A DNA stretch of 33,412 nt from Promethearchaeota archaeon (GCA_048940375.1 JBHLOP010000001.1:1-33412); one strand, 5' to 3'. Numbered from the stretch's first letter, positions 2,500-31,653 are shown. Program-made: numbers and translations. The notes: a model not told the origin generated them from the sequence alone.

Positions 2500-3660
2500 T
2501 CATCCATTTTCTGAAATTTCCCAAACATCAATCAGTTTATAATTTGTCGTTCCAAGACCAAGATCTTCAGCCGCTTTAATCTGAACCATCGGATCTGCCC
2601 CGCAAATCGAAATAGCTTTAAATTTTTCTGTTCCTTTCTCTAACACGTTAAATTGTTCAGCTACGGATCCTGGAACTCCTGGTACTCTGTTTATAAGGTC
2701 AAAGGTAGCTTTATCTACAGCTACAGGATCCTTTGATGCTAGGATGCCCAGATCTGGGATAAATGGAATACCAGAGTTTGAATCTGTATCAGGATTAGGT
2801 GTCACTTCAATAATGAAATTATAATAAACCATCTTGCCATCCATCGCTTGGATAACGAATGAGGCTGCATCAGCTACTTTAGTTTGAAGATCTATTACCT
2901 GCTCCTGTGAAACCTCCAAAGCTAGCTGTGGGCACTTAACTATACATTTTCCACATCCAACGCATTTATTAGAATCAATAAAAACCGTTTCATTTATTTT
3001 AATAGCGTTCCATTCACACATCTGTTGACATAAACCACACATATTACATTTTTCCATGTTTACACTTGGTTGAAAATCTTCAAAAATGCGCATTTTCCCT
3101 TTTTTTGCTGTGCAACCTAAAGCCATATCAGCTATTGCGCCATAAAATCCAATGAAAGGATCACCAGTTACATGCGTGAGCATCATAAGTAGTTGACAGT
3201 AAGTTATTGTAGCACCGACTTCTAAAACACGGATTTTTTTCGCATTTTTATTCATTAAGGTCTTACTATCCATTCCGGTATAGCCTTCCGCCAGAAAAAT
3301 CTCTGTTCCCAGACTTTCCATCGAAAAACCGTGTTGCCGACACTTATATGCCCATGCTGATGCATCATAGCGTTCTCCTCCCTTCCATAGACTCAGTGAG
3401 TCAATTGCGATTGGTATCGAGCGGAGTTTAAGAAGTTCATCAACCATTGTCCTGACCATTATTGGTCGTAAGTAATGAGTTGATGATGCATCTCCCGTTA
3501 GAAATCTAATTCCAGGTCGCGTAAATGTTTCCGTAGAAATCCATTCTCGTACATCTAGAAGTTCGAATAAGCGTTCTAAGGAAATTCTCATATTTTGCCA
3601 AGGAAAATATGAGGTTGCGGATGCGAAATAAACTTCAGCTGTTGTCAAATGAACAAACAC
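2500..3660 (-). CDS. DUF362-family protein with an inserted 2x[4Fe-4S] ferredoxin domain
   Basis: Two CxxCxxCxxxC motifs (CNMCGLCQQMCEW, CVGCGKCIVKCPQ) within DUF362-like flanks. GTG start. Confidence 0.8.
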   Translation of the reverse strand: MFVHLTTAEVYFASATSYFPWQNMRISLERLFELLDVREWISTETFTRPGIRFLTGDASSTHYLRPIMVRTMVDELLKLRSIPIAIDSLSLWKGGERYDASAWAYKCRQHGFSMESLGTEIFLAEGYTGMDSKTLMNKNAKKIRVLEVGATITYCQLLMMLTHVTGDPFIGFYGAIADMALGCTAKKGKMRIFEDFQPSVNMEKCNMCGLCQQMCEWNAIKINETVFIDSNKCVGCGKCIVKCPQLALEVSQEQVIDLQTKVADAASFVIQAMDGKMVYYNFIIEVTPNPDTDSNSGIPFIPDLGILASKDPVAVDKATFDLINRVPGVPGSVAEQFNVLEKGTEKFKAISICGADPMVQIKAAEDLGLGTTNYKLIDVWEISENG

Positions 3661-11773: not shown

Positions 11774-13182
11774 TTCACTTCACCTTTCTGGAGAGGATTA
11801 TTTCGTCTTAAGATCGCCATGCTAACAGCATTAGCTTGTTCAATGGTTGAGGGAATATCTTTTGGTTCTTGGGCGGCTCCACAGACATAAACATTCTCTA
11901 TATTTGTATAAATGCTTTCTTGAGCTCCAGTTGTTGGAAAGAATCCATAATCATCTAATTTAATACCTAGCATCTCAGCCAGTTTTCTTATGCCTTTAGA
12001 TGAAACAAGAGCGGCACTAAGAACGACTAGATCAGTTTCTAGATCCATAATCTCGTCAGTTTGGATATCTGAAACATAAACATGCACTTTTTGTGTCACA
12101 GGGTCCTTCTCAACGTGGCTAACTCTGCCTTTGATGAATCTGACACCTAGCTTTCTTGCCTGCTCATAGTAGTCCTCATAAATAAAGGGCGTCCGAATGT
12201 CAATATAAGCAATATTTACGTCAATTTCTTGCTCTCTAATTAGGAGTGAATGTTTAAGAGCATACGTACAGCATAAACTTGAACAATAACTATTTAATCT
12301 TTTGTCTCTTGACCCAACACATTGTAACATAGTTACATTCTTTATTGGAGCACCATCTTTCTTTAGAAGTTTCCCCTTAGTCGGACCTTGTGGATCTACT
12401 AATCGAGCAAGTTCTACTTGTGTAATTACTTCATCAAATATACCATATCCATACTCTTTTAGAGGGCTAGGATCAAATTCTTCAAAGCCTGTCGCTATAA
12501 CAACCGAACTGAATGTTTTTTCAATGGTTTCCCGTTCTTCTGTGAGATCTATTGCGTCTGTTGGGCAAACTTCTACACATTTAGCACATTCTTCGAATAA
12601 GCATGTATTTGGATCAATTACGTAAGAATAAGGAATCGCCTGGGACGCAGGCAAATAGACCGCTTTTCGAGTATCTAAATTAAGATTTGTAGGATTAGAT
12701 ACCTTTACTGGGCATATATCTGCACACTTATCGCACATAATGCATTTTTTCGCGTCTACAAATCTCGGCTGTCTTTCCAGTGATACCTTAAACTTTGAAT
12801 TAAGTTTCTCAACTGCCACAAGTTGTGTTTGAGTAAGCAATTCTATATTTGGATGCTCTGTGATACCGCATCTGTAAAAACATTTCCTAAATCCACCACG
12901 AGAAAAAAGTCTGTCCGATGACGAGACACAAAGGGCGCAATCATCTGTTGGAAAAAATCTGAAGAGTTGTAACGCGTTACCACCGAGAGTTGGTGCTTTT
13001 TCAATTAAAGAAACTGGAACTCCAAAATCGCCTAGTTCAAGTGCTACATGAATTCCTGCAATTCCTCCACCAATTACGAGTACAGGTGGCGGTCCAGAAG
13101 TGACATGTTCATTCAATGGACTTCCTCGCTTTTGAATACTAAATAATAATTCTTTAAGAGGTAATAAGGTGCACCTTGTCAT
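11770..13182 (-). CDS. HdrA-like flavoprotein with inserted 2x[4Fe-4S] ferredoxin domain (QmoA-like position)
   Basis: FAD motif VIGGGIAG, CIMCDKCADICP and CAKCVEVCP. The segment QCVGSRD..YCS..CC is shared with the downstream paralogue. Confidence 0.85.
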   Translation of the reverse strand: MTRCTLLPLKELLFSIQKRGSPLNEHVTSGPPPVLVIGGGIAGIHVALELGDFGVPVSLIEKAPTLGGNALQLFRFFPTDDCALCVSSSDRLFSRGGFRKCFYRCGITEHPNIELLTQTQLVAVEKLNSKFKVSLERQPRFVDAKKCIMCDKCADICPVKVSNPTNLNLDTRKAVYLPASQAIPYSYVIDPNTCLFEECAKCVEVCPTDAIDLTEERETIEKTFSSVVIATGFEEFDPSPLKEYGYGIFDEVITQVELARLVDPQGPTKGKLLKKDGAPIKNVTMLQCVGSRDKRLNSYCSSLCCTYALKHSLLIREQEIDVNIAYIDIRTPFIYEDYYEQARKLGVRFIKGRVSHVEKDPVTQKVHVYVSDIQTDEIMDLETDLVVLSAALVSSKGIRKLAEMLGIKLDDYGFFPTTGAQESIYTNIENVYVCGAAQEPKDIPSTIEQANAVSMAILRRNNPLQKGEVK

Positions 13183-18020: not shown

Positions 18021-19280
18021 TTGATACACTCAGCCAGTCAAAAAATCACTTTTATTGATTCTAGTATTGCGGGGATTTCTGGAGATATGTTACTTGGCGC
18101 GTTAGTCGATGCTGGGGCTAATCAGGCGAAAATTACTAAATTAGCAGAGGTAATTCCCGAATTTCTTTCTGATTGTAAAGAAATTACCATAGATTTTGAA
18201 GAAGTTAATCGAAGCGGTATTCAAGCAACCAGGATCGGAATTAATATTCTTGAACATATTCATCATCGGGAAGGTGCAACGCTTTTAAATGCATTAACAC
18301 GCATTCTTCCTGAATTTGACCTATCTAAAGAGGCAAATGATTTTGCAATCAATTCATTAAAAACGTTAATTCAAACAGAAGCTTCTGTTCATAATGAACC
18401 CTTTGATCATGTTCATCTTCACGAAGCGGGCTCAGCAGATACAATTATTGATGTGGCTGGAATCGCAATCGCTCTTGATTCTCTCGATTTGTTCAATTCA
18501 AAGATTTATGGAACACCTCCTTCCATTGGTGGAGGGATAATCAAAATTGATCATGGGACTTATCCTGTGCCCCCACCAGCTACAAGCAAGATCCTGCGCG
18601 ACTATAGTATCCCTTTCAAAGGAGGACCTGTTGAGAAGGAATTGGTTACCCCTACAGGTATTTCAATATTAGCAAATCTTGTTACAAGTTTCGCTACAGT
18701 ATATCCTGCAATGACCATTAAAACAGAAGGATATGGTGCTGGCAAGTATGAGTTTCATGGCATTCCAAACGTTACAAGAATTATTATTGGAGATGCAGCT
18801 AATCAGAAGTTTTTTGAGGATGAGATAGTTAAGCTTGAAACAAATGTTGATGATGTTACAGGAGAAACTTTAGGTTATACCATGAATAAACTGCTGGAAA
18901 ATGGAGCTTTGGATGTTAGTTATTTGAACACTGTTACAAAAAAGAATCGTCCAGGTTATTTAATCTCTGTGATTTCCAAACCCAAAGATAGCCTCAAGTT
19001 AACATCCATTTTATTCGAAGAAACGGGTACACTTGGAATCCGAACCATCCCTGGCATCAAGCGGTTGATCCTCAGTCGCAGTGTCGAAAAAATTACAATT
19101 ACGGTTGATGGTAAAGAATTTTATATAGGAATCAAGATCGGAAAGGATTCTGACGATAATGTTCTCACAATAAAACCTGAATTCGAGGACATAAAAGATA
19201 TAGCTAAAGAAACAGGAGAGTCAATGAAAACTATTTCTGAGATTGCCTTAAAGAAAGCCAGTGAAAAATTCGGCACATAA
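18021..19280 (+). CDS. larC: LarC (DUF111 nickel insertion protein / CTP-dependent cyclometallase)
   Basis: N-terminal GISGDMLLGALVDAGA, HLHEAGSADTIIDV, PVPPPAT. TTG start at 18021, 6 nt after GGAGGT. Confidence 0.85.
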   Translation: MIHSASQKITFIDSSIAGISGDMLLGALVDAGANQAKITKLAEVIPEFLSDCKEITIDFEEVNRSGIQATRIGINILEHIHHREGATLLNALTRILPEFDLSKEANDFAINSLKTLIQTEASVHNEPFDHVHLHEAGSADTIIDVAGIAIALDSLDLFNSKIYGTPPSIGGGIIKIDHGTYPVPPPATSKILRDYSIPFKGGPVEKELVTPTGISILANLVTSFATVYPAMTIKTEGYGAGKYEFHGIPNVTRIIIGDAANQKFFEDEIVKLETNVDDVTGETLGYTMNKLLENGALDVSYLNTVTKKNRPGYLISVISKPKDSLKLTSILFEETGTLGIRTIPGIKRLILSRSVEKITITVDGKEFYIGIKIGKDSDDNVLTIKPEFEDIKDIAKETGESMKTISEIALKKASEKFGT

Positions 19281-19318
19281 CTTTCGATGAAGTATCAAAA
19301 AGATAAGGAGTGTTGAAA

Positions 19319-19864
19319 ATGTCAAATCTGGAAGAAATAGTTGCAACAAATCTGAAAAAGAAACCGAGCATACACGAATCAGTTTTTATTTCACCCTCAG
19401 CTAATGTTATTGGGGATGTAGAATTAGCGGAAAACGCTTCTGTTTGGAATTGTGCAGTCGTGAGGGGGGATGTAGGACGGGTTGAAATCGATAGGTTCTC
19501 TAATGTGCAAGATAATTGCGTCATACATCCTGGATGGACTCGTGAAAGGGATACAGGGATTGATGTGCGCATCGGCCAATACGTCTCAATCGCACATGGC
19601 GCAATTATACATGGTGCCACTATAGAAGATAATGTTATTGTAAGCATGAACGCTACAGTTATGAATAATGCCAAAATCGGCTCTAATTCTATTATTGGCG
19701 CAGGTGCGGTAGTTACACAGAATGCTGTCATTCCAACAAATAGTATCTGTTTCGGTATTCCTGCAAAACCTGTCAAAACAGTGAATGAAGAGCAATTGGA
19801 ATTGATAAGGTGGAATGCAAAGGAATACTACAAACTTGCGCGAAGTTATTTGAGATTAAAATAA
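19319..19864 (+). CDS. gamma-carbonic-anhydrase-family (left-handed beta-helix, YrdA/PaaY-like) protein
   Basis: Hexapeptide repeats with IHPG..IG..VSIAHGAIIHGATI. I prefer the ATG at 19319, 8 nt after AAGGAG, over the GTG at 19310 in the ORF track. Confidence 0.8.
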   Translation: MSNLEEIVATNLKKKPSIHESVFISPSANVIGDVELAENASVWNCAVVRGDVGRVEIDRFSNVQDNCVIHPGWTRERDTGIDVRIGQYVSIAHGAIIHGATIEDNVIVSMNATVMNNAKIGSNSIIGAGAVVTQNAVIPTNSICFGIPAKPVKTVNEEQLELIRWNAKEYYKLARSYLRLK

Positions 19865-19925: not shown

Positions 19926-20246
19926 TCAATGATTAAGGATTTTATCGGCCTCTGTTGAAATCTTTATGAAAAGATGTGAAAAAGAGGTTGCTTTAACATA
20001 ATTATCCCAGAAAACTCTATGGATTGCTCTTTCGATTGATTCATGTATTATTGTATTTGCTAAATCTCTTGGTTTGTGGTTACATGGACTTGTCAAAAAG
20101 ATATAAATTGTATCTGTTTTGAGATCATAGTATCCACATCTAGTTGCTGTAGACCCTACTTCCTTTTTTACATATGGTGGTACTTTTGGTTCACGTATAC
20201 CGCAAAAAATTATAGGAACTCCATGTTCTGATTTCATTGATTCCAT
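19926..20246 (-). CDS. hypothetical protein (about 106 aa from ATG at 20246; the ORF track starts at TTG 20276)
   Basis: ORF only. No motif recognised. Confidence 0.35.
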   Translation of the reverse strand: MESMKSEHGVPIIFCGIREPKVPPYVKKEVGSTATRCGYYDLKTDTIYIFLTSPCNHKPRDLANTIIHESIERAIHRVFWDNYVKATSFSHLFIKISTEADKILNH

Positions 20247-20687
20247 AAATAAGACCTGCCTAGTACAACTAAACAAGTTCTATAAGAAGGAATTCTCCCC
20301 TAACTATCTCTTTTCTTATTATAGGTTCCATACGTTGTATTTCGCATTTTTCATATCTGCAAACTTGAGTTATTGACTTTAAGTACAGATCTTCTTTCTA
20401 AATCGATCCTTAATAAGCAGTTTTCCCTGAATTGTCTGCTTATTCATATTTTTATGTATTAATACACCTATATATTCTTTTCGTCATCTCTTCTTTATTT
20501 CGCGGATTTCAAGTTCTCAAGCAGCTAATTATCATGATCGATCATTACAAACAAAAATAATGCGCGCCTTTTACGTAAAAATTTAATGCAATACAGTGGA
20601 GACTCATCCATCAATTAAACAATAGATTTCTTAATTTCCGTCTCGGAGATGGCTCAAATCTGATATTCAATGTGTAATTTCTTCTCG

Positions 20688-20833: not shown

Positions 20834-22702
20834 ATGGCAAACGGATACATGGGTAAATGGGTCGATATTGACCTAAACAAGAAGAGTGCTGTAATTAAAG
20901 ATGTTGACATGGATTTTGCCAAAACCTGGGTCGGAGGACGAGGTGTCGGTGTTAAAATTCTTTATGATCGCTTGAAGGCAGGAGCAGACCCACTCTCACC
21001 AGACAATATAATCGTCCTTGCAACGGGTCCAATAACAGGTACAGGTGCTCCGAGTTCTGGACGATTCGTTAGTATTACAAAGAGCCCACTAACAAACACG
21101 GTACACGATTCGCACTGCGGTGGAGACTTCGGTCATGCACTTAAAGCTGCGGGGTTTGATTGGCTCGTCATCACTGGCAAAGCTGATAAACCGACTTGGA
21201 TCTTCTTAGATGATGGAAAAGTGGAGTTTAAAGATGCATCAGCCCTTTGGGGCAAAGATGTTTTCGAAACAGAAAAAATGCTTCTTGAAGAATTAGATCC
21301 GAGTGCTAAAGGTCAGAGCATGGAAAAACTCACGCGCAACTCGATTGGTGTAGCATGCATTGGACCCCCTGGAGAAAATATGAAACGCCTCGCGGCTATA
21401 ATGAATAGATTTTATCGTGCCGTTGGAAGAGGTGGACATGGGGCAGTTATGGGTTCAAAGAACCTAAAGGCTGTAGTGGCAAGAGGAAAACAAAAAGTCT
21501 CCTTATATGATGAGGATGCATACAGGGCAGCTGTGAAAAAGAATGAAGATGAAGCAATGAAAGTAAGCGATGTAACAAAGCCAGGAGGAGGACTTAATAC
21601 GCTTGGTACAGCCCTGCTTGTTAACATTATAAATGGTGCAGGAATTTATCCCACTAGAAACTTCCAGACAGGTGTATTTGAGGGTGCTGAGATTACTTCT
21701 GGAGAATATCTAAAGGAAAAACGATTAATCAAGCCTGTTGGTTGCAAAGGATGTAGAATTATGTGTGGGCGATGGTCTAAAATCGAAAAAGGACCTTTTG
21801 CCGGAACTGAAATGGAAGGACCTGAATATGAGAATATGTGGTCGTGGGGTGCTGATTGTGGCGTAGATGACATTGACTATGTGATGACAGCACATCACTT
21901 GTGTAATTTATACGGGCTCGATGCGATTCAAGCGGGTACGACGACTGCATTCGCTATGGAGTGCTTTGAGAAAGGCATTATCACCACAGAGGATACGGGT
22001 GGTATCGAACTCACATTCGGAAACGCTGATGCTATGATAAAAATCGCCGAACAAATAGGTAAAGTAGAAGGAATTGGCAAAATCCTTGCAGATGGTGAAG
22101 TAGTTGCCGCAAGAAAATGGGGCAAAGGTGCTGATAAGTACGCTATGGTGACAAAAGGACAAAGCATGCCAGCTTATGACCCGAGGGGATCAAAAGGACA
22201 TGGACTTGCATATGCCACATCTAATAGAGGCGCATGCCACATACGTGCTTACATGATCAATCCAGAAATTTTAGGTGCACCTGAACAATTGCCGAGGTTC
22301 GATCCAGGCCAAAAGACGATCGATATGTTAATTGCCTTCCAGAACTTTGTTGCACTTCTAGACTCCAGTCTTCTTTGCCTGTTTGTTTCTTTCGCCATGG
22401 GTAATCAGGAGTTTGCAAACTTACTAAAGCCAGCCACTGGCTGGAACTGGACTGCCGATATGGTCGATGAGGTTGGCGCACGCATTTGGAATCTTGAACG
22501 AATGTTTAATTCACGAGAAGGATTTGGCAGAAAGGACGACACTTTAGCTACCAGAATGCTTGAGGAACCTATGCCTGAAGGACCAGCAAAAGGACATACC
22601 GTGCCAATCGATAAACTGTTGCCGATGTACTACGAGACTCGTGGATACGATAATGAAGGCAAACCGACTGAAGAAACACAGAAAAGATACGGCCTCGCAT
22701 AA
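20834..22702 (+). CDS. aor: tungsten-containing aldehyde:ferredoxin oxidoreductase (AOR family), copy 1
   Basis: Aligns by eye along its length with Pyrococcus-type AOR. Shared elements: N-terminus GxWG..IDL, SGRF..TKSPLT, AAGRGGHGAVMGSKNLKA, GCKGCRIMCGR cluster cysteines, EGPEYE, PAYDPRG..GHGLAYATSNRGACH, LCLF. Confidence 0.95.
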   Translation: MANGYMGKWVDIDLNKKSAVIKDVDMDFAKTWVGGRGVGVKILYDRLKAGADPLSPDNIIVLATGPITGTGAPSSGRFVSITKSPLTNTVHDSHCGGDFGHALKAAGFDWLVITGKADKPTWIFLDDGKVEFKDASALWGKDVFETEKMLLEELDPSAKGQSMEKLTRNSIGVACIGPPGENMKRLAAIMNRFYRAVGRGGHGAVMGSKNLKAVVARGKQKVSLYDEDAYRAAVKKNEDEAMKVSDVTKPGGGLNTLGTALLVNIINGAGIYPTRNFQTGVFEGAEITSGEYLKEKRLIKPVGCKGCRIMCGRWSKIEKGPFAGTEMEGPEYENMWSWGADCGVDDIDYVMTAHHLCNLYGLDAIQAGTTTAFAMECFEKGIITTEDTGGIELTFGNADAMIKIAEQIGKVEGIGKILADGEVVAARKWGKGADKYAMVTKGQSMPAYDPRGSKGHGLAYATSNRGACHIRAYMINPEILGAPEQLPRFDPGQKTIDMLIAFQNFVALLDSSLLCLFVSFAMGNQEFANLLKPATGWNWTADMVDEVGARIWNLERMFNSREGFGRKDDTLATRMLEEPMPEGPAKGHTVPIDKLLPMYYETRGYDNEGKPTEETQKRYGLA

Positions 22703-22714
22703 AAACGAAAAAAT

Positions 22715-22743
22715 CCCTTTCCTTTTTTTTTCCTGTTTTTCTT
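22715..22743 (+). terminator. oligo-T tract after AOR copy 1 (archaeal-type terminator candidate)
   Basis: CCCTTTCCTTTTTTTTTCCTGTTTTTCTT begins 13 nt after the stop codon. Confidence 0.4.
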
Positions 22744-22842
22744 AACATTTCTTAGATTAAAAAAACAAAAAAAGTTTTGAAGAAGTTTAAATGACTCGTA
22801 TCGACTACTTACTTATTAGAATGAATGAGGTGGCATTACCTT

Positions 22843-23223
22843 ATGTTGAGCCAACGACGCTTTAGAGGAACAAATTTTCCAGGCGTGGTATTTTCAAATT
22901 CTGCAGTATGCCTTGAAAGCATGGGGATAACTCTTACAAAAAAAGAAGTGCTGAAAGAAGAAGATATCGACTTTGAAGGTATCATAGAAGGTACTCAGAT
23001 AAGTCCTGCAGGTGAGGTTATTATCCGACTTAAAATCTATGGGTGGCGTGATATGGATCATCATATGGGGTTCTGGCCAACAACCATAACTACTGATCTC
23101 ATGATCGAAACATTTGAACTCTCTAAGAACGAGAAAGAACTCCCTGACACTCTAAATGCGAAAGTTTTACATGATGAATTTAATAATCGTATCAATCTAT
23201 ATGTTTGGCATACTGCTGGCTAA
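22843..23223 (+). CDS. AOR-linked small protein, paralogue 1 (unknown family)
   Basis: Homologous to 25905-26288 and 30036-30407. I prefer the ATG at 22843 (MLSQRRFRGT), about 10 nt after GAGGTG and matching the paralogue N-termini, over 22825. Confidence 0.7.
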   Translation: MLSQRRFRGTNFPGVVFSNSAVCLESMGITLTKKEVLKEEDIDFEGIIEGTQISPAGEVIIRLKIYGWRDMDHHMGFWPTTITTDLMIETFELSKNEKELPDTLNAKVLHDEFNNRINLYVWHTAG

Positions 23224-23688
23224 TCATCTTGTATCTTTATTGTCGTATGGCAACCCAGAAAAAACTTTATACAAAAGTATTATAGCAAATTTGAAGTGAA
23301 CTCATTACTCCATTACAACGAAGAAGATACCTTTCCATAAAGAAGAATGTAGTTTTTGTGATCGATACTTTTTAAAGACCACACAGTTATTGAAATAATT
23401 ATTTAAATTTACTATACTCTACCAAAAAAGAGGAAAAACATCCATTTCCAATTAAAATCTTTGAAATCGGAGTATATTCATATATTTGATTTTAAACCTG
23501 TTTTATTTCCTTAAAAAACCTAAAAAGCGCTTATTTGCAATTTAATTTTTAGAAGTAAGAGTATATTTGTATACTTCAGATAGCTTAATGTATTTTACGT
23601 CAACTCGATTTTTAATGATGTTCTGTCTCTGAAATTTTTTTAATTCGATGGTTAATGAATCTACTCGTTACTAAGTTCATTTTCATCG

Positions 23689-23708
23689 ATATGCATAATG
23701 ATTCATAT
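23689..23708. promoter_or_regulatory. palindrome ATATGCAT-AATG-ATTCATAT, candidate operator of AOR copy 2
   Basis: Same element as 20688-20707 with one arm mismatch. Lies 25 nt upstream of a TATA-like box. Confidence 0.5.
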
Positions 23709-23732
23709 CACTCTGAGCCTTAACGTTAATGC

Positions 23733-23742
23733 TTTTATATAA
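23733..23742 (+). promoter_or_regulatory. TATA-like box of AOR copy 2
   Basis: TTTTATATAA about 90 nt upstream of the start codon. Confidence 0.4.
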
Positions 23743-23826
23743 CCTTTCACCATAAAATAGGTCACACTCCTTTTTTGATACAACTTTGTATCTCAAAACG
23801 TTTTGAGTTAGGAGGAAATATGAAAA

Positions 23827-25668
23827 ATGGCAAGAGGATATATGGGAAAGGAAGCGTGGATTAACCTATCCACAGGGAAAATAGAAATCAAAGACATTGA
23901 TTACGACTTTGCAAAGAAATGGCTTGGCGGAAGAGGTGCCGGAGTTAAGATCCTTTATGACAATTTGAAGCCAGGAACAGACCCACTATCACCAGACAAC
24001 ATCATCGTGTTCGCGACTGGACCATTGACAGGAACAGGCGCTCCCAGTTCTGGACGATTTTGTACTGTTACAAAGAGTCCTTTGACGGGAACAGTCCACG
24101 ATAGCCACTGTGGTGGTGATTTTGGTCACGCCCTTAAAGCAGCTGGATTTGATTGGCTTATCATTACAGGAAAAGCCGCTAAACCAACAATGATTCTGTG
24201 TAATGATGGAAAAATAGAGTTGAAAGATGCATCGAAATACTGGGGTAAGAGTGTTTTTGAGACGGAAAAAGGAATTCTTGCAGAATTAGATCCATCTTCA
24301 GCAGGAAAAGATATGGAAAAACTCGTCAGAAATCCAATTGCTGTCGCTAGCATTGGACCGCCAGGCGAGAATAAGAAAAGACTTGCCGCAATAATGAATA
24401 GATTCTACCGTGCCGCTGGAAGAGGTGGACACGGAGCTGTTATGGGTTCAAAGAATCTAAAAGCTGTAGTGGCAATGGGCAAACAAAAGGTCCCTATGAA
24501 TGATGATGCTGCATACAAGGCTGCGGTTAAAAAGAACGAAGACGAAATAATGCAAACAGGTGACGTAACAAAGATCGGCGGAGGCCTATACACACTTGGT
24601 ACTGCTCTGCTGGTGAATATCATCAATGGTGCTGGAATCTACCCAACACATAACTTCCAAATGGATGTATTTCCTGGCGCTGAAATTACCTCAGGTGAGC
24701 ATCTAAAGGAAAACCGCTTGATCAAGAATGTCGGTTGCAAGGGCTGCAGAATCATGTGCGGACGATGGAGCAAGATAGAAAAAGGACCTTATGCCGGAAC
24801 TGAGTGTGAAGGATTCGAGTACGAGACCACATGGTCTTGGGGCGCGGACTGCGGTTGTGACGATATCGACTATGTTTTGACAGCACATCATATTTGCAAC
24901 GAGTATGGGCTTGATGCAATTCAGGCGGGTACAGCGTGCGCATTCGCGATGGAATGCTATGAAAAAGGAATTATAACAAAAGATGACACAGGCGGAATTG
25001 ACCTCAAATTCGGAAATAATGAGGCCATAGTGAAGATTGCAGAAATGATGGGTAAAGTCGAAGGAATCGGTGCCTTATTAGCCGAAGGTGAAGAGATGTC
25101 AGCTAAAAAATTCGGCAAAGGTGCTGAAAAGTACGCAATGACAGTCAAAGGCCAAAGCATGCCTGCTTATGATGGAAGAGGTGCAAAAGCACACGCACTT
25201 GCATATGCAACCTCCAATAGAGGTGCATGTCACTTACGTGCTTATATGATCAATCCTGAAATCTTAGGTGCACCTGAGGCATTAAATCGATTCGCTCCAG
25301 ACCAGAAGTCAATCGACATGTTGATTGCATTCCAAAACGGTGTTTCAGTGATGGATTCTTCTCTGGTTTGTCAGTTTGTGACCTTCTCCATGTGGATGCA
25401 GGAATTTGCCAACCTATTAAACCCAATAACTGGCTGGAACTTCACTGCTGAAAGTTTGGATGAAATGGGTGCTCGCATCTGGGCTCTTGAGAAGAAATTC
25501 AACATCCGAGAAGGATTTGGCAAGAAGGACGACACCTTACCAACTAGAATACTTGAGGATCCAATACCAGCAGGACCCTCAGCGGGAAACACGGCGAAAG
25601 AAGGAATGGACTTACTAGAGACATACTATAAGACACGCGGATGGGATTCGAACGGTAATCCACCATAA
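23827..25668 (+). CDS. aor: tungsten-containing aldehyde:ferredoxin oxidoreductase (AOR family), copy 2
   Basis: Same motif set as copy 1. Most positions are identical to copy 1 by eye. Confidence 0.95.
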   Translation: MARGYMGKEAWINLSTGKIEIKDIDYDFAKKWLGGRGAGVKILYDNLKPGTDPLSPDNIIVFATGPLTGTGAPSSGRFCTVTKSPLTGTVHDSHCGGDFGHALKAAGFDWLIITGKAAKPTMILCNDGKIELKDASKYWGKSVFETEKGILAELDPSSAGKDMEKLVRNPIAVASIGPPGENKKRLAAIMNRFYRAAGRGGHGAVMGSKNLKAVVAMGKQKVPMNDDAAYKAAVKKNEDEIMQTGDVTKIGGGLYTLGTALLVNIINGAGIYPTHNFQMDVFPGAEITSGEHLKENRLIKNVGCKGCRIMCGRWSKIEKGPYAGTECEGFEYETTWSWGADCGCDDIDYVLTAHHICNEYGLDAIQAGTACAFAMECYEKGIITKDDTGGIDLKFGNNEAIVKIAEMMGKVEGIGALLAEGEEMSAKKFGKGAEKYAMTVKGQSMPAYDGRGAKAHALAYATSNRGACHLRAYMINPEILGAPEALNRFAPDQKSIDMLIAFQNGVSVMDSSLVCQFVTFSMWMQEFANLLNPITGWNFTAESLDEMGARIWALEKKFNIREGFGKKDDTLPTRILEDPIPAGPSAGNTAKEGMDLLETYYKTRGWDSNGNPP

Positions 25669-25702
25669 ATCCAATAAAAAGTATTTAATCGAGTAAAAAA
25701 CT

Positions 25703-25750
25703 CTTTTTTCCCTTTTTTTATTTTTTTCTGGTTTAATTTGTTGTTTTTAT
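25703..25750 (+). terminator. oligo-T tracts after AOR copy 2
   Basis: CTTTTTTCCCTTTTTTTATTTTTTTCTGG... follows the stop codon. Confidence 0.4.
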
Positions 25751-25904
25751 GGGATTTAGTAACTAGTTCTTAAGAGAATTATCTCAAATAAGAGAAAATG
25801 CTTGTTAGATCGAATATGAAAAGATATTTAAAAGAATCTTATATTAAAGTCACAAATTAACGCGATTAATAGCCGACGTTACACATAATTGATAAGGTGA
25901 TATT

Positions 25905-26288
25905 ATGATAATCGAGCGACGCTTTAGGAGTACAAAGGTTCCAATCCAGGTTTGGAACAACACTATCTTGTGTCTTGAGCGGATAGGTGTAACTCTCTCG
26001 AAAAAAGAAATACTGAAATATGAAGGGGATGATTTTGATGGTATCATTCAAGGTACTCGGCCAGGTTCTCAAGGACAGGTGTATGTTCGAGTTAAAATCC
26101 ATGGATGGCGAGACATGAACCATCATGGTGGCTTTTGGCCAACATCATTGACTTCCGATCTTATAACTGAAACATATGAACTCTCTGAGAACAATGAAGA
26201 ACTCCCCGACACTCCAGATGCGAAAGCCCTAAATGAACATTTTAATGACAATATAGGCAAATATTACTTGTGGGGTACTTCAGGTTAG
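25905..26288 (+). CDS. AOR-linked small protein, paralogue 2 (unknown family)
   Basis: AAGGTGA lies 4 nt before the ATG. Homologous to the other two copies. Confidence 0.7.
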   Translation: MIIERRFRSTKVPIQVWNNTILCLERIGVTLSKKEILKYEGDDFDGIIQGTRPGSQGQVYVRVKIHGWRDMNHHGGFWPTSLTSDLITETYELSENNEELPDTPDAKALNEHFNDNIGKYYLWGTSG

Positions 26289-26437
26289 TATTTTTTGCGT
26301 CCTATATATACAAAAACCTCTAAATTTCTTTTTTACTTTATTTCAATCTCTTGCTAGCATAACAATCTAAAAAACGAAAAGAGAATGCGAATTCTAAGAT
26401 CTCTCTAAAGTGTTCAATAACCAGTATCGAGATAATC

Positions 26438-26734
26438 CTATCCTCCACCACTCGGCGGAAAGAGTGCGATGAGATCGTCATCCTTTAGTTCTGTTTTTGG
26501 GCCTTGTAAATTCCTTACATTTGTTCCGTTGACGAACATAATCAAACGATTAGTTAATTGATTTGTTTCGGGATCAATAAATTTTTCTTTTACCTCTTCA
26601 CCATAATGTTGGATGAGTGCGTTGATTAAATCCTCTACAGTACAATGATCTAATGTGAATTGTCTGCTTGCTTCCTTCACGACATTCGTTCTCAATATGC
26701 CATAAAATTTGACAGTAACATCAATCATCTTCAT
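26438..26734 (-). CDS. MoaD/ThiS-like ubiquitin-fold sulfur carrier or small modifier ending in GG
   Basis: 98 aa. C-terminus DDDLIALFPPSGGG is typical of MoaD/SAMP-type beta-grasp proteins. Confidence 0.75.
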   Translation of the reverse strand: MKMIDVTVKFYGILRTNVVKEASRQFTLDHCTVEDLINALIQHYGEEVKEKFIDPETNQLTNRLIMFVNGTNVRNLQGPKTELKDDDLIALFPPSGGG

Positions 26735-26839
26735 TCCCCAATATTATCTTGGTAGATACCTTAACAGATTTTATTATTTTGGCAATAAATTACTTTATTC
26801 AAATGTTCGGTTTATAATTATTTTTCTAGGTTTTAATTC

Positions 26840-28273
26840 TTAATGAGAAAAAACATTAACTTGTGAATTGAAATAATTGGCAAATCGGATAATATCGGTC
26901 TCAGACATGTTTTCAGTCTCATAACCAAGACGAGAACTGAGTGGTATACCTAATGCAAATTTCTTATAGGTCACATAGAAATCAATGAATTGCTGAAATC
27001 TTAAAAGTATACCGAATTTTTGTGGGTCCAAAAAGCGCGGAGAACATGGTTCAAGAAAAATTGGATTACAAGCAATATGTACAATATTGGGATATTCTTC
27101 AACGACCCTTTTTCCAAGCTGTACAGTTTCTCTGAAATGTGTTACAGTTTCACCGGTCAACCCAGTAGTGAAATATAATTCGATGGGAATTAAGTTTTCT
27201 TTGGTGAGATCAAGCCATGAGAATAATTGTGAATCGCTATAAAAGAATCCTTTATTCAATTTTCGAATTGTTTCGCTACCAGATTCTGGAGACAATGTAA
27301 GAGTAGTGTATAAAGGATTGAAAGTTCTTTTAAATTCTTTCAAGAACTTTTTTGACGTGACGTCCCATACCAAAAACTGGGATGAAATGTCTACACCCTC
27401 TTTTCGGATCATATCGAAGAGCTTAAAATAATATTCACGCGTTTTCCTTCCATAAGGGTCAAAATCGCAGTAAGCACAAGAGATTTTCATTTCTTCAAAT
27501 GCGTTCAATGTTTCAATTACTTTTTCTTGTGAACGGAACAGGGGAGTCAAACGTCCTGTAAGGAGGCACTGAGCGTTATGGCCACCTCCGCAATAACTGC
27601 AATTTACTGCACAGCCTCTTCCTACACATAACCATCCCTGTCTCTTCAATTTTTGGCGAAGGTTGTCATTTTCGTGAGTAAGTTGTAGGTATTTGTACCA
27701 ATTTCTAAGCAATGAGAGTCTATGAAAATTAAAAGAGTCAAATTGCTCTTGAGACGGATAATATATCTTTTTACTTTGATTTATGCTATCATTTTCTCGA
27801 TAAAACAAATTAGGAATATTAGATAGAGTTTTAGAGGGAAGAGCGTTCAAAAGATCTAACATCGGGATTTCTGCATCGCCTTTAACAATTGCGTCAACAT
27901 AAGCAAAGTTTTGCAATATTTCTTCAGCAAAACAGGAAGCAGTGAACCCGCCTAATACTATGAAGACGTTTTCATAAACATTTTTCGCCATTTCAGCTAT
28001 CTTTAATGCGTCATAGCTATGAGGATACCAATGCAGATCGATCCCCACAACTGTTGGATTATACTCTTTGAATAGTGCTTCCATCGTGAAAGATGGATTT
28101 AGCAGTTCTTCTAATCCATTGTGAACAATTTCTGTTGCAAATCCATTCCTTTCAATATAATCTGCAATCGCAATTGTCCCCATGGGAAGTATTACGTTAG
28201 TTAGGATATTTTTATGGGAACGCGTTTTGACACGAGTTGTGGGATGTATGAATAAGCAATCGAGTTCCTTCAT
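26840..28273 (-). CDS. B12-binding-domain radical SAM enzyme
   Basis: N-terminal Rossmann-like B12-type domain (VVGIDLHWYP...VLGGFTAS), then CX3CX2C as GCAVNCSYCGG. Its ATG overlaps the upstream TGA (ATGA). Confidence 0.85.
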   Translation of the reverse strand: MKELDCLFIHPTTRVKTRSHKNILTNVILPMGTIAIADYIERNGFATEIVHNGLEELLNPSFTMEALFKEYNPTVVGIDLHWYPHSYDALKIAEMAKNVYENVFIVLGGFTASCFAEEILQNFAYVDAIVKGDAEIPMLDLLNALPSKTLSNIPNLFYRENDSINQSKKIYYPSQEQFDSFNFHRLSLLRNWYKYLQLTHENDNLRQKLKRQGWLCVGRGCAVNCSYCGGGHNAQCLLTGRLTPLFRSQEKVIETLNAFEEMKISCAYCDFDPYGRKTREYYFKLFDMIRKEGVDISSQFLVWDVTSKKFLKEFKRTFNPLYTTLTLSPESGSETIRKLNKGFFYSDSQLFSWLDLTKENLIPIELYFTTGLTGETVTHFRETVQLGKRVVEEYPNIVHIACNPIFLEPCSPRFLDPQKFGILLRFQQFIDFYVTYKKFALGIPLSSRLGYETENMSETDIIRFANYFNSQVNVFSH

Positions 28274-29346
28274 TGTACTTCCTTCTTCAGAATTTGCAGG
28301 GAATGAATTGCTGTAAAGCCAATTTGATTAAGAAGAGAGGTTAGAAATTCATTTTGTTCATCAATATATCCAATCTGACAGTTCGTTAGGCCTTTTTCTC
28401 TCATTAGCAGTAATGTCTTATGAAGAAGTTCCTTAAAGAGATCATCATCTTCAGTTTTAACTCCAAACCTAAAGATTTTTCCTGTCGTGAAAGGATGCAT
28501 TTTTAATAGGTTTGGATAAAGGAATGGCGTTGGTAATGCATTAACTGGTAATTCAAACAGATTAGGTGTCCATTGAAAGAATCCTATTAATTGTTCGTCC
28601 TGAAAACTTGCAATACCCTGATCTACGATATCAATCGCGTTGTGATTTGAAATAAAAGCCAGAGAATTTGTAATCGAATAATTTTGCATAATCATAGAGG
28701 ATGTGGGATCTCTGAGTAATATGGTCAAGTTTCTTCCTGGGAAGTCTTCTAAGATTTTATATTGTTGTTGTTTTGATTTCAAATGCAGATTATTTAGCAA
28801 TGTTTCAATCTCGCATTCATAGCATACCAATCTCCTGTATTCCTTTAAACCTGCCTCCCGAAACTGGGCAAAATCATACGAGAGAAGAGTGTTTTTAAAT
28901 AACTCAGTGACATCATAAGAAAAATGTGTGAGCGATGTTGGATATGCAGGAAGGGATGATGAGGGCAACATCCTCTGAAGTTCTAAATAGAGTGCCATTT
29001 CACCAACTTCACCCGTTTTATTGAAGCAAGTGCTGAGCTCATCAAGTAAAGTATGAACGGTCGAAAAGTCGCTTTTTTCAAGCCAAATTGGATGTGTAAG
29101 ATATATCGCTAAATGTTCGTCTTCATCAATAAAGGGAAAACTAAATGAAAATAACAAATCGGTAATAGTATTCCCTTTCTTATGATAAAGCGTGCATGGC
29201 AAAAAAGCCGAGATATTTTCATTCTTAAAAGTAAGATAATCAATAGGAGTACCCATAGGAAAGTATTTGTAATTTGGGGCAGTGAAGAGAAACTGAACTT
29301 TTCTAAATAACGAGAGAGGTAGTCTTATGTCTAACTGAATTTTCAA
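28270..29346 (-). CDS. hypothetical protein, C-terminal part GNAT-fold-like; translationally coupled to the radical SAM gene
   Basis: The C-terminus IFRFGV..LLHKTLLLMREKGLTNCQIGYIDEQNEFLTSLLNQIGF has the beta4-alpha3-beta5-alpha4 pattern of acyl-CoA N-acyltransferases. TTG start is uncertain (the next ATG is codon 31). Confidence 0.55.
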   Translation of the reverse strand: MKIQLDIRLPLSLFRKVQFLFTAPNYKYFPMGTPIDYLTFKNENISAFLPCTLYHKKGNTITDLLFSFSFPFIDEDEHLAIYLTHPIWLEKSDFSTVHTLLDELSTCFNKTGEVGEMALYLELQRMLPSSSLPAYPTSLTHFSYDVTELFKNTLLSYDFAQFREAGLKEYRRLVCYECEIETLLNNLHLKSKQQQYKILEDFPGRNLTILLRDPTSSMIMQNYSITNSLAFISNHNAIDIVDQGIASFQDEQLIGFFQWTPNLFELPVNALPTPFLYPNLLKMHPFTTGKIFRFGVKTEDDDLFKELLHKTLLLMREKGLTNCQIGYIDEQNEFLTSLLNQIGFTAIHSLQILKKEVQ

Positions 29347-29488
29347 ATCTTGTCATCTGCTTTATAGTTTGAGACATATTTTATAGTGCTTCTTTTTAAA
29401 AAATAGATCGAAAAAAAAGAAACTCTAATGCCGATTGTATGCCCTTGATCAGGACGACCAACTCAAATACGGGTTGAAGAAAAAACAT

Positions 29489-29647
29489 TTACATTTTTTC
29501 GAACATATCTTTATCTGCTCCACATACTGGGCAAACCCAATCCGCGGGGAGTTCCTCAAATGGTGTTCCAGGTGCAGCCCAAGGCTCATCACCAACTTCT
29601 GGGTCATAAATATACCCACAAACGCCACATTGATATTTATCTGCCAA
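29489..29647 (-). CDS. rubredoxin
   Basis: [10 protein letters not shown] and CPVCG knuckles with WxxxPxxFxxLPxxWxCP. I prefer the TTG at 29647 (MADKYQC..., 5 nt after GGTGA). The ORF track extends to GTG 29698. Confidence 0.88.
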
Positions 29648-30035
29648 TTGTTTCACCAACTTTAAACTCTTGACTTTCAAGTGCAAGAGAACTGCCACGA
29701 GCTCTCTCTATGATAAGTCTCAACTGAGCAAGACAGTCTATAATAAATCTTATTTTTCATACTTTTGGTTTTGACATACTTTTTGACATTTCTCATCCTT
29801 GTGTCTATCATTTATGCTCTTATTGAACAGCCAAGAAAATGAAATCAGGATTTTCATCAGATATTTCAGCGATTTCAAAGAGAAGTCTTCTAAACCATGG
29901 CTATGTTCTGTATTTACCACTATCCTATATTTTATATTACAAACATTGCAGATTATGAAGGGAGAGTGTTAAACTTGTACTATTAAGAAGGATATGCTTT
30001 TATCAAACAAATTTGAATAATAAAAGGGGAGACGT

Positions 30036-30407
30036 ATGATAACCCAAAGGCACTTTAAAGGTACAGAACCTCCTAGTCAAATGTTTTCTGATTGTTTAGC
30101 TTGTCTTGAACACATGAAAGTTGTTCTTACAAAAAAAGAAGTTCAGAAAGACGAAGGGAACGACTTTGATGGCTTGATAGAAGGTATGAGAATGAGTTCT
30201 TCGGGACAAACAATGATTCGACTCAAAGTACATGGTTTCCGAGAAGGGGGTCATCCATTGTTTGCAGGAGAAGTTATTGAAATCAATGTAGAAACCTTTG
30301 AACTATCTGAGAACAATGAACAGCTCGATACTCCAAATTCGAATGCCTTAAACGAGGAATTTAACAAGCAGATCAATGCTTATGCATGGAAACATGCAGG
30401 TGGCTGA
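30036..30407 (+). CDS. small protein, paralogue 3 of the AOR-linked family (divergent)
   Basis: Shares RHFKGT, CLE, LTKKEV, DFDGLIEG, IRLKVHGFR, ETFELSENNEQLDTP and EEFN with the other two. Lacks their WRDMxHHxGFWPT block. Confidence 0.65.
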   Translation: MITQRHFKGTEPPSQMFSDCLACLEHMKVVLTKKEVQKDEGNDFDGLIEGMRMSSSGQTMIRLKVHGFREGGHPLFAGEVIEINVETFELSENNEQLDTPNSNALNEEFNKQINAYAWKHAGG

Positions 30408-30464
30408 TTAGTAGACTTTTCTCTTCCTCTTCTTGTCATCCAATGTATAAGCTATAAAACAAGC

Positions 30465-31373
30465 TTAACTTTTTTTGTTATTATGTACTGCTTTTCTGAT
30501 CTTTACGAAAGCGTCAAAGGGCGGACAACCAGGAATTTGAATACCTTTGCAATCTGTCGATTCACATGCACAATCGCCAACAATGAAATCTAAACTCGAT
30601 TCAGTATGAGGCTCAGAAGGATTTTTACCCACAACAACTTGCATGTTTTGAACTAACGAAATGTCTCCCTTCTTGTGTAGAGATTGTAGTGCGGTTTTAA
30701 CGATTGCCTTGCAATATTGACAGGTTCCACCTTCATACACATCCACTTTATCATAAACGCCACTTATAGCTAAATCTGGTAACGCAAAGTAGTGTTTTAC
30801 CTTGTCTAGTGGATCGCCAGCTATATTTATGTGATCAAGTCTTCCTTCTCCTAATCCTTGTGCGTTTGCTAATCGTACATGTGCAATACCAAATGGATCA
30901 ACACCCATTATGTCACAACCGACTGCATCACAGGCAACAATATCCGGAGACGCAACAAGCGTGTTTAGATATACTGGAGTTCCTAGTCCAGGACCATGAC
31001 CTTCCATCGCTATTGTTCCATCTATAATGTTCAGGGTAAATTTGTCTTTAACGCATCTGTAAATGTCAACTAACTTCTGGTGGAGGTTATCAAGATGAGC
31101 ATATGTTTTTTGAGAGTCATGGATGATACCTTGCAAATTTTTGAGGCAGAGCGTCACGGTTGTCATGTGGTGAGTTTTCATAACAGGAATATTGATGACA
31201 TGATCTACATCAAAAATAAGTTTAGAAATTAATGGTTTTCTTAGGACTTTATTTTCTGGATTTTCAACCTCGACAAATTCGTACTGGTCGAGATCAACCA
31301 CCTCTCCCCCCACTTCACGCACTGCTTCATTTAAACCAGTACCTTCAAGAATTCGTTCCCAAGATCGCTTCAT
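30465..31373 (-). CDS. DUF362-family protein (ATG-bounded part; the true 5' end lies further upstream)
   Basis: DUF362-like core (PVMKTHHMT, IIDGTIAMEGHGP) and a Cys-rich C-terminus. Confidence 0.8.
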   Translation of the reverse strand: MKRSWERILEGTGLNEAVREVGGEVVDLDQYEFVEVENPENKVLRKPLISKLIFDVDHVINIPVMKTHHMTTVTLCLKNLQGIIHDSQKTYAHLDNLHQKLVDIYRCVKDKFTLNIIDGTIAMEGHGPGLGTPVYLNTLVASPDIVACDAVGCDIMGVDPFGIAHVRLANAQGLGEGRLDHINIAGDPLDKVKHYFALPDLAISGVYDKVDVYEGGTCQYCKAIVKTALQSLHKKGDISLVQNMQVVVGKNPSEPHTESSLDFIVGDCACESTDCKGIQIPGCPPFDAFVKIRKAVHNNKKS

Positions 31374-31653
31374 GATGTGTTTTGTCGGGTACGAAGCGCT
31401 ATCTCCAACTAAGATCTCTTCTGCGTCAGTTAAATGCGTTATAAGTTTTCTAATGACATCTTTATTGGTTGTAATAGGTGCAGGTCGATTATGTGCAATG
31501 TTAGGCTTTATTAAGATCTTACCTTTCAGCGGGAGACCTTCTAATAAATCAACTAACTTTTGAACAGCATCTTCTGGGCTTGAACCTTTTGCTACATTTA
31601 CTGTTTGAATTGCGTTTACCCCCTGAAGTTTCAGCGAATGGTTTAAACAACAT
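31374..31653 (-). other. in-frame N-terminal continuation of the DUF362 gene with no canonical start codon; possible frameshift at a homopolymer
   Basis: Reading upstream of 31373 in frame gives VNVAKGSSPEDAVQKLVDLLEGLPLKGKILIKPNIAHNRPAPITTNKDVIRKLITHLTDAEEILVGDSASYPTKHI, the typical DUF362 N-terminus. There is no in-frame ATG/GTG/TTG back to the stop at about 31741. The nearest ATG (31653) is one frame off, across a C5 run at 31619-31623. Confidence 0.55.

Follow-up and report, generated by a model that had tools for sequence, protein, structure and literature searches.

The locus described here raises the question of why a small protein without a recognisable domain should be encoded directly behind a tungsten enzyme, and twice over. 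In a stretch of 33,412 nucleotides from a Promethearchaeota archaeon (GCA_048940375.1 JBHLOP010000001.1:1-33412; the whole stretch is called the window below), two paralogous genes for aldehyde:ferredoxin oxidoreductase (AOR1 and AOR2) are each followed by a gene for a protein of about 125 residues (copies 1 and 2), and a third homologue (copy 3) lies farther downstream, away from any AOR gene. Comparative evidence makes it very likely that this small family is functionally tied to one AOR subclade. As to the nature of the tie, the reading that is tentatively favoured below is that the small protein would be a private assembly, maturation or stabilising factor of the AOR encoded upstream.

The small-protein family and its AOR genes

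The first-pass annotation of the window, made from its sequence alone, had described the three small genes as homologues, and the alignments confirm this. All three are on the + strand, at the exact coordinates collected in Table 1, and their products align from end to end with pairwise identities of 45-55%: copies 1 and 2, judged by eye to share about half of their positions, have 55% identity, and copy 3 shares 45-48% with each of them. The E-values of tblastn among the copies (1e-31 to 1e-46) are far past chance. Every sequence block that had been listed is recovered in the alignment, as is the loop GWRDMxHHxGFWPT that copies 1 and 2 have in common and for which copy 3 has the shorter GFREGGHPLFAGE. 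In comparisons with orthologues from related contigs, the ratio of nonsynonymous to synonymous substitution rates (dN/dS) is 0.11-0.21 over all three copies, similar to the 0.07-0.15 of the neighbouring AOR genes. Copy 1 is 93% identical to its orthologue in Candidatus Borrarchaeum weybense (dN/dS 0.21), copy 2 is 91% identical to that of Ca. B. yapensis (0.20) and copy 3 is 85-89% identical to its orthologues (0.11-0.20). The copies are therefore real genes under purifying selection.

The family appears to be previously undescribed. The impression that it has no recognisable domain is borne out by Pfam, which leaves the three copies blank at E <= 1 and all 26 aligned members blank at E <= 10, and by NCBIfam, which has no family for the three copies; a sequence search of the PDB gives only E-values of 0.65 or more, so that no characterised family is confidently matched. 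The source records say 'hypothetical protein' only, and no description of such a protein was found in the literature. A word-indexed search of 5.8 billion proteins returned 31 clusters of 97-144 residues, none of them named and one of them from a 'Sifarchaeia archaeon'. An exhaustive hidden Markov model search of 1.84 billion representatives returned four distant relatives of 123 residues and one spurious protein. When these four relatives were used as seeds, a second, distant subfamily of 10 clusters emerged, one of which comes from a metagenome-assembled genome of Bathyarchaeia, and a combined profile added just three further clusters, for a family total of ~45. P0035, a protein of 2131 residues with 12 near-identical Ser/Thr-rich repeats, reached E 3e-6 against the family profile and was rejected as a repeat-amplified false positive. 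A metagenome scan with the Asgard alignment found 8 loci, and a scan of the GTDB representative genomes, with a single usable pattern, found no member of the distant subfamily. All hosts are uncultured archaea, namely the Asgard lineage Candidatus Borrarchaeum / Sifarchaeia and a group containing Bathyarchaeia.

Judging from these sequences, the members are soluble, acidic, cofactor-free proteins of ~125 residues, with isoelectric points of 5.2-5.5 in the window copies and of 4.8-10.4 over the whole family. Only R5, F44, Y120, W122 and the C-terminal G126 are invariant over both subfamilies; the terminal Gly is found throughout and Gly-Gly is confined to the copy-3 type. The 'one conserved Cys' of the first-pass annotation stands within the Asgard subfamily and fails beyond it: Cys23 is variable, members have 0-3 Cys and none is kept family-wide. 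An Fe-S or Zn site at Cys23 was rejected, as this residue is missing from the distant subfamily. The absence of an Fe-S or Zn signature was correctly noted, no Cys, His or metal motif being kept across the family, and neither a nucleotide-binding nor a DNA-binding signature was found in it.

The genes that flank the small ones are what they had been taken for, that is, true AORs (AFOR_N and AFOR_C, E 1e-75 to 1e-140) for copies 1 and 2, and rubredoxin and DUF362 genes for copy 3. A module is defined here as an AOR gene with a small gene behind it; counts refer to distinct modules with a visible upstream gene, and loci were annotated with the window proteins as queries together with the gene calls of the source contigs. 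In 16 of 16 modules the two genes share a strand and the small one comes directly downstream of the AOR gene. Those of the copy-1/2 type come from the window (two), B. yapensis (two, L001), B. weybense (two, L005) and loci L008, L015, L016 and L017, and those of the distant subfamily from L009 (Bathyarchaeia), L010-13, L014, L023, L024-26 and L110. The other neighbours of the distant-subfamily modules differ by locus (peptidase M20/amidase; cupin/Ldh_2; Glu/Gln-tRNA synthetase; TBP/Yip1) and their GC content is 45-60%, against 39% at the Asgard loci. The adjacency is kept even though small proteins of different subfamilies are only 22-38% identical. The expected proximity of homologues to aor genes is thus found in neighbourhoods that are otherwise unrelated.

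This association is restricted to one clade. No family member occurs within 2.5 kb of any of 80 AOR loci from other genomes, among them those of Thermococcaceae, other Asgard and other Bathyarchaeia. These comparison AORs are at most 53% identical to the partnered ones; 79 could be aligned and used in the tree, where the partnered AORs are monophyletic with respect to them (neighbour-joining bootstrap 100/100). Within the clade, the distances among AORs and among small proteins co-vary (Mantel r = 0.94, p = 1e-4, 13 modules; r = 0.89 in the Asgard set alone), although the small protein diverges ~1.5 times faster: in the distant subfamily its identities are 28-48%, compared with 72-79% for AOR. 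This correlation implies that the pair was duplicated and inherited as a unit, and the pairs remain intact after duplication, in agreement with the earlier suggestion that the pairing has outlasted sequence divergence. The proposal of a function tied to tungsten AOR consequently holds as far as linkage, clade restriction and co-divergence go; its variant of a redox partner is disfavoured, since the family lacks a Cys, His or metal motif common to its members. The window is similar to the genomes of Ca. Borrarchaeum, and its two modules differ in their closest relatives. B. weybense has the nearest counterparts of AOR1 and copy 1 (94% and 93% identity, against only 75% and 55% for B. yapensis), and B. 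yapensis has those of AOR2 and copy 2 (94% and 91%, against 82% and 66% for B. weybense). Either whole modules have been exchanged between species or different paralogues have been retained.

The spacers between the genes also follow a pattern. Those of the window measure 140 and 236 nt, within the range first estimated, and both contain the reported oligo-T tract (T-runs of 6-9) and a Shine-Dalgarno motif of their own (GGTG). Each of the 16 modules has a run of at least six T that starts 11-56 nt past the AOR stop codon, and ahead of the small gene there is a purine-rich Shine-Dalgarno motif. Only 40-43 nt separate the two genes in the distant subfamily, where five of six small genes start with TTG. 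Asgard spacers are 127-252 nt long, their TATA-like box (TTTAAA) stands 50-70 nt ahead of the start codon, and this layout is kept across orthologous spacers. Oligo-T tracts serve as archaeal terminators. The arrangement would fit a co-transcription that is attenuated by partial termination, to which a dedicated promoter would be added in Asgard, and in that case the small protein would be less abundant than AOR.

Fold and possible roles of the small protein

AlphaFold2 models built from the Asgard alignment (copy 1; predicted local distance difference test, pLDDT, 83.8; predicted template-modelling score, pTM, 0.78) and from the distant subfamily (pLDDT 91.0, pTM 0.83) have the same topology, β1-α1-β2-β3-β4-β5-α2 (DSSP E-H-E-E-E-E-H), with the lowest confidence in the β4-β5 loop and the last three residues. 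The top Foldseek matches of both models in the PDB are helix-grip proteins of the START/Bet v 1/SRPBCC type (PYR/PYL, CERT START, ZhuI, SMU.440), with E-values of 1e-4 to 1e-3, template-modelling (TM) scores of 0.3-0.44 and root-mean-square deviations (rmsd) of 8-12 Å. This is a fold-level resemblance that points to no characterised family with confidence, and a search of the viral structures in BFVD likewise gave fold-level matches only and nothing close. The predicted fold is thus a compact two-layer β-α-β4-α arrangement, of TBP-like or helix-grip topology, without a close solved relative. We take β-α-β4-α to correspond to one repeat of TBP (the TBP-like fold of SCOP); no match to PF00352 was obtained, and for neither model does TBP appear in the listed top 50 of the Foldseek search of the PDB. 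RNase P Pop5 was also considered, from a match of copy 2 only in NCBIfam (13.9 bits, E 0.038, cut-off 195 bits) and from PDB 2av5 (E 0.65). It was dropped because the scores are far under the cut-off, the same β-α-β-β segment is involved each time, which has the look of shared supersecondary structure, and the proteins are acidic.

Under the favoured reading, copies 1 and 2 would be dedicated, paralogue-specific partners, each of the AOR encoded just upstream. The unit formed by the AOR gene, the oligo-T tract, the Shine-Dalgarno motif and the small gene would have a single origin in the ancestor of one AOR subclade, and would later have been duplicated and passed on whole in Borrarchaeum-type Asgard and in the Bathyarchaeia-containing group. 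One partner per paralogue, co-divergence and a conserved, flexible C-terminal tail together point towards direct protein-protein binding, so that each small protein may bind its own AOR. Two candidate contacts are proposed: the C-terminal tail Y-x-W-H-T-[SA]-G, which is invariant and would be disordered when the protein is alone, and the β4-β5 loop with its aromatic motif W..H..G-x-F-x-P. In its long, Trp/His-containing form this loop correlates with AOR linkage. Made in smaller amounts than AOR, the protein could for example keep apo-AOR open for the insertion of the tungsten-bis-pyranopterin cofactor, or protect the enzyme. It is not expected to carry electrons, since there is no cofactor-binding motif in the family.

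The partnered enzymes themselves bear on the closest competitor of this reading. AOR1 and AOR2 are 75% identical to each other. With both AFOR domains and the closest similarity to the Pyrococcus furiosus enzyme (1aor is the nearest solved structure to AOR1, E 2.6e-165), they are AORs sensu stricto. In AOR1, both ligands of the bridging Fe of the P. furiosus homodimer are missing, Glu332 and His383 being replaced by Thr and Ile. Such ligands are unique to the AOR_Pf subclade (PMC12096430), so that AOR1 need not share the quaternary structure of that homodimer. The partnered clade is marked by a two-residue insertion (K249-P250) and by D246 and G252 as signature residues, at a distance of 7-13 residues on the N-terminal side of the catalytic-shell Thr (Thr243 of P. 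furiosus).

It is possible, if rather unlikely, that the small protein is instead a permanent, stoichiometric, non-redox β subunit of AOR, one that would dock on the catalytic subunit, either in place of the Fe-bridged contact of the homodimer or as a cap over the substrate channel, and so tune the oligomeric state, the stability or the access of substrate. Linkage, clade restriction and co-divergence speak equally for a subunit and for an assembly factor, the missing Fe-bridge ligands keep the subunit alive as an explanation, the clade-specific changes of AOR adjoin the catalytic-shell Thr, the short spacing in the distant subfamily is operon-like, and AOR subclades are known to differ widely in their accessory subunits (PMC12096430). 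Nevertheless, the oligo-T tracts between the genes and the TTG starts of the distant members suggest that less of the small protein is made than of AOR, the longer Asgard spacers have TATA-like boxes of their own, and the small protein diverges much faster than the enzyme. It is because of these attenuation signals, weak start codons and fast evolution that an assembly factor is favoured over a permanent subunit.

A quite unlikely alternative follows from the fold: a small-molecule carrier with a helix-grip pocket, which would hand to AOR, or buffer for it, either its substrate, in the form of a hydrophobic aldehyde or acid, or tungstate or the pterin cofactor. Nearly all of the top structural matches are ligand binders, Gly and aromatic residues are conserved on strands β3-β4, and there is a precedent in CoxG, an SRPBCC protein that accompanies molybdenum CO dehydrogenases. 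Yet the TM scores and rmsd values of these matches are poor, a protein of 5-6 strands and ~125 residues would leave little room for a cavity when compared with the 7 strands and at least 150 residues of START, no SRPBCC model of Pfam matches any of the 26 aligned members at E <= 10, and no oxyanion-binding motif is recognised.

It is improbable that the small gene is a functionally unrelated passenger whose adjacency to AOR only reflects the common descent of a short segment in a few related lineages. The family is small and known from metagenomes only, the Asgard loci are all closely syntenic and two sub-lineages appear to lie away from AOR, but the adjacency holds between subfamilies of low identity in which all other neighbours and the GC content (39% to 60%) differ, the pairs survived tandem duplication intact, and the distances of AOR and small protein co-vary. 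Least probable of all is a regulator of aor expression, for instance a dimer of single TBP-like domains on DNA or RNA near the aor genes, for although the topology recalls one TBP repeat, the Asgard copies have promoter-like elements and the Pop5 matches are a weak, sub-threshold hint, the window copies are acidic, the spread of isoelectric points leaves no conserved basic surface, Pfam gives no helix-turn-helix or TBP match, and it would be unusual for every enzyme paralogue to have a regulator of its own.

The copy-3 sub-lineage has a shortened β4-β5 loop, from which the Trp/His block is lost, and a Gly-Gly end. As had been noticed, copy 3 of the window stands between a rubredoxin and a DUF362 gene, and the pairing with rubredoxin recurs in L001-L004, L007, L018, L020, L021 and the P0020 contig. 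At the syntenic site of B. weybense copy 3 is absent, and the gap holds an apparent Hsp20-like C-terminal fragment. Under the assembly-factor reading, copy 3 would be a paralogue that lost the loop, moved to the rubredoxin/DUF362 neighbourhood and was presumably re-targeted to another partner. A fourth subgroup, also with a short loop (P0023, P0031), is followed by a methylase gene of the MmeI/Eco57I restriction-modification type (L027 411-2197; L028 559-1479), not by MoaD.

Several observations weigh against an AOR assembly factor. All eight copy-3-type genes with visible flanks adjoin rubredoxin (divergent) and/or DUF362 (convergent) and none adjoins AOR, and upstream of the fourth subgroup the contig ends after 22 visible C-terminal residues that are unlike AOR. 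The gene is missing from the vast majority of AORs, so that insertion of the tungsten cofactor cannot depend on it in general, and it must be a clade-specific addition. No fusion of the family domain to AOR or to any other domain occurs among the 1.84 billion representatives. The argument from T-tracts and TTG starts for low expression is indirect, and the Asgard copies, with their putative TATA-like promoters, could be regulated independently of AOR. Finally, the private chaperones known for molybdo- and tungsto-enzymes (TorD/DmsD/NarJ, XdhC), to which such a role would be compared, differ in fold; those of the TorD type are all-α, whereas the present family is predicted to be α/β and has no sequence or fold relationship to them.

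Genes and features of the window

The coordinates of the AOR modules, of copy 3 and of their neighbours are given in Table 1.

Table 1. Features of the AOR island in the window (positions counted from its first nucleotide)
Feature	Position	Strand	Evidence or signals
AOR paralogue 1 (AOR1), 622 aa, cognate enzyme of copy 1	20834..22702	+	AFOR_N E 8e-75, AFOR_C E 1e-140
Intergenic spacer 1	22703..22842	+	T9 run 22723-22731; TATA-like TTTAAAT 22786-22792; Shine-Dalgarno GAGGTGG 22827-22833
Family copy 1, 126 aa, AOR-linked type, long Trp/His loop (GWRDMDHHMGFWPT)	22843..23223	+	
AOR paralogue 2 (AOR2), 613 aa, cognate enzyme of copy 2	23827..25668	+	AFOR_N E 2.5e-74, AFOR_C E 2e-131
Intergenic spacer 2	25669..25904	+	T-runs 25704-25727; TATA-like ATATTTAAAA 25824-25833; Shine-Dalgarno AGGTGA 25895-25900
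Family copy 2, 127 aa, AOR-linked type	25905..26288	+	
MoaD/ThiS-family small sulfur-carrier-like gene	26438..26734	-	PF02597 E 7e-12; TIGR01687 moaD_arch 61.1 bits (cut-off 49.5)
Rubredoxin gene, divergent from copy 3	29489..29698	-	PF00301 E 1.3e-20
Family copy 3, 123 aa, short-loop type, GG end, no adjoining AOR	30036..30407	+	
DUF362 gene, convergent with copy 3	30465..31547	-	PF04015 E 3.8e-40

Two gene starts deserve comment. The list of open reading frames (ORFs) also offers an upstream ATG for copy 1, at 22825. The start at 22843 is better supported, since all homologues begin in the same way (M-[IL]-x-x-R-x-F-[RK]) and the GAGGTGG motif lies 9 nt ahead of it. The DUF362 gene is given in the same list as 302 aa from an ATG, yet its frame is open further upstream, to 31547, and 357 residues align with the orthologue of Ca. 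B. yapensis, which starts with TTG, at 94% identity; it is thus likely that the gene is complete and begins with a codon other than ATG. In B. yapensis, copy 3 and DUF362 are separated by a gene for a Zip-family metal transporter (L001 14626-15369). Such a gene adjoins DUF362 in B. weybense (L005 14675-15931) and is absent from the corresponding gap of the window (30408-30464).

A MoaD gene adjoins the second module in L001-L005, L008 and L015-L018. In the window it belongs to a conserved trio on the - strand (26438-29346), with a B12-binding radical SAM gene, whose best match (TIGR04190) is under the cut-off, and a gene for a 357-residue protein that has no match in Pfam or NCBIfam. The stop codon of this last gene and the start of the radical SAM gene overlap. 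The MoaD gene of B. weybense has the opposite orientation and comes directly after copy 2, on its strand. The 600 nt that separate copy 1 from AOR2 (23224-23826) are AT-rich and hold no ORF. Rfam has no family there, and Rfam and tRNA scans of the window are empty. The equivalent position of B. yapensis is occupied by a second hexapeptide-repeat (LbH) gene (L001 7033-7581); in the window (19310-19864) and in B. weybense an LbH gene is found upstream of AOR1 only.

Upstream of the AOR genes, an ORF of 116 residues without a family match (19926-20276, - strand) is divergent from AOR1 and has the same position in both Borrarchaeum genomes, with 79% identity. A gene for a LarC-type nickel-insertion protein (18021-19280) lies just upstream of the AOR island and is also syntenic in both. 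Farther away are a second DUF362 gene, fused to 4Fe-4S ferredoxin domains (2500-3660, - strand), and two adjoining flavin/Fe-S oxidoreductase genes (9653-13182, - strand), the first of which has a C-terminal MvhD/FlpD domain (HdrA-MvhD-like). This domain suggests that the pair forms an electron-bifurcating module, linked to ferredoxin, ~8 kb ahead of the AOR genes.

Comparison with known systems

AOR-family tungsten enzymes are the only known catalysts that reduce unactivated carboxylic acids (PMC12096430). They are of biotechnological interest and difficult to make in active form, and both the delivery of their tungsten cofactor and the determinants of their quaternary structure are poorly understood. 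If the favoured reading is true, an enzyme-specific, cofactor-free partner would provide a handle on both questions for one AOR subclade, and the catalogue of Asgard and Bathyarchaeia proteins would gain a new fold family. It is conceivable, if doubtful when all its parts are taken together, that the family is the first known to provide a tungsten AOR-family enzyme with a non-redox subunit, or with a dedicated maturation or assembly factor for each paralogue, on a fold that has no close solved relative, that it marks an AOR subclade shared by Asgard (Borrarchaeum) and Bathyarchaeia-type archaea, and that copy 3 does the same for a rubredoxin/DUF362 system. The significance is probably clade-specific, the family being rare and found in uncultured hosts only, while most AORs manage without the gene.

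A functional analogy can be drawn with the maturation chaperones TorD/DmsD/NarJ and XdhC. Like the present family, they are small and cofactor-free, they are encoded beside or inside the operon of one pterin-cofactor enzyme, and there is one chaperone per enzyme paralogue, co-evolving with it. None of their profiles in Pfam or NCBIfam was matched, a result that excludes membership but not an analogous role. The TorD-type chaperones also bind a twin-arginine translocation (Tat) leader, which AOR does not have. A 2025 review mentions no dedicated chaperone or maturation factor for any AOR-family enzyme (PMC12096430).

Resemblances to three other groups are partial. Small MoaD/ThiS/SAMP proteins also adjoin AOR genes, and the family ends exactly at a conserved Gly, which becomes Gly-Gly in copy 3. 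Membership of a MoaD-like or MoaE-like group, considered for the neighbouring MoaD gene and the terminal Gly, was rejected, as the predicted fold is not a β-grasp and neither PF02597 nor TIGR01687 is matched. With the SRPBCC/START/Bet v 1 proteins, CoxG included, the family, to judge from its models, would share an antiparallel sheet packed on a long C-terminal helix; it differs from them in its smaller number of strands, in being 25-50 residues shorter, in the low TM scores and in the lack of a profile match. The accessory subunits of AOR, finally, are like the present proteins encoded beside the catalytic gene and specific to a subclade. Those known are all redox proteins, with a polyferredoxin, an FAD (flavin adenine dinucleotide) subunit or a HydABC-like module (PMC12096430): the polyferredoxins AorA, Wor1S and WOR5-S, the FAD subunit AorC and the Wor1ABC proteins carry Fe4S4 clusters or flavin, whereas the present family lacks CxxCxxCxxxC motifs and matches to the Fer4 models of Pfam. 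As it has neither a conserved Cys nor a nucleotide-binding motif, it cannot relay electrons as AorA, AorC or Wor1ABC do. AORs with subclade-specific accessory proteins are a known theme, and what is new in this locus is a probable cofactor-free partner of ~125 residues built on the fold described here.

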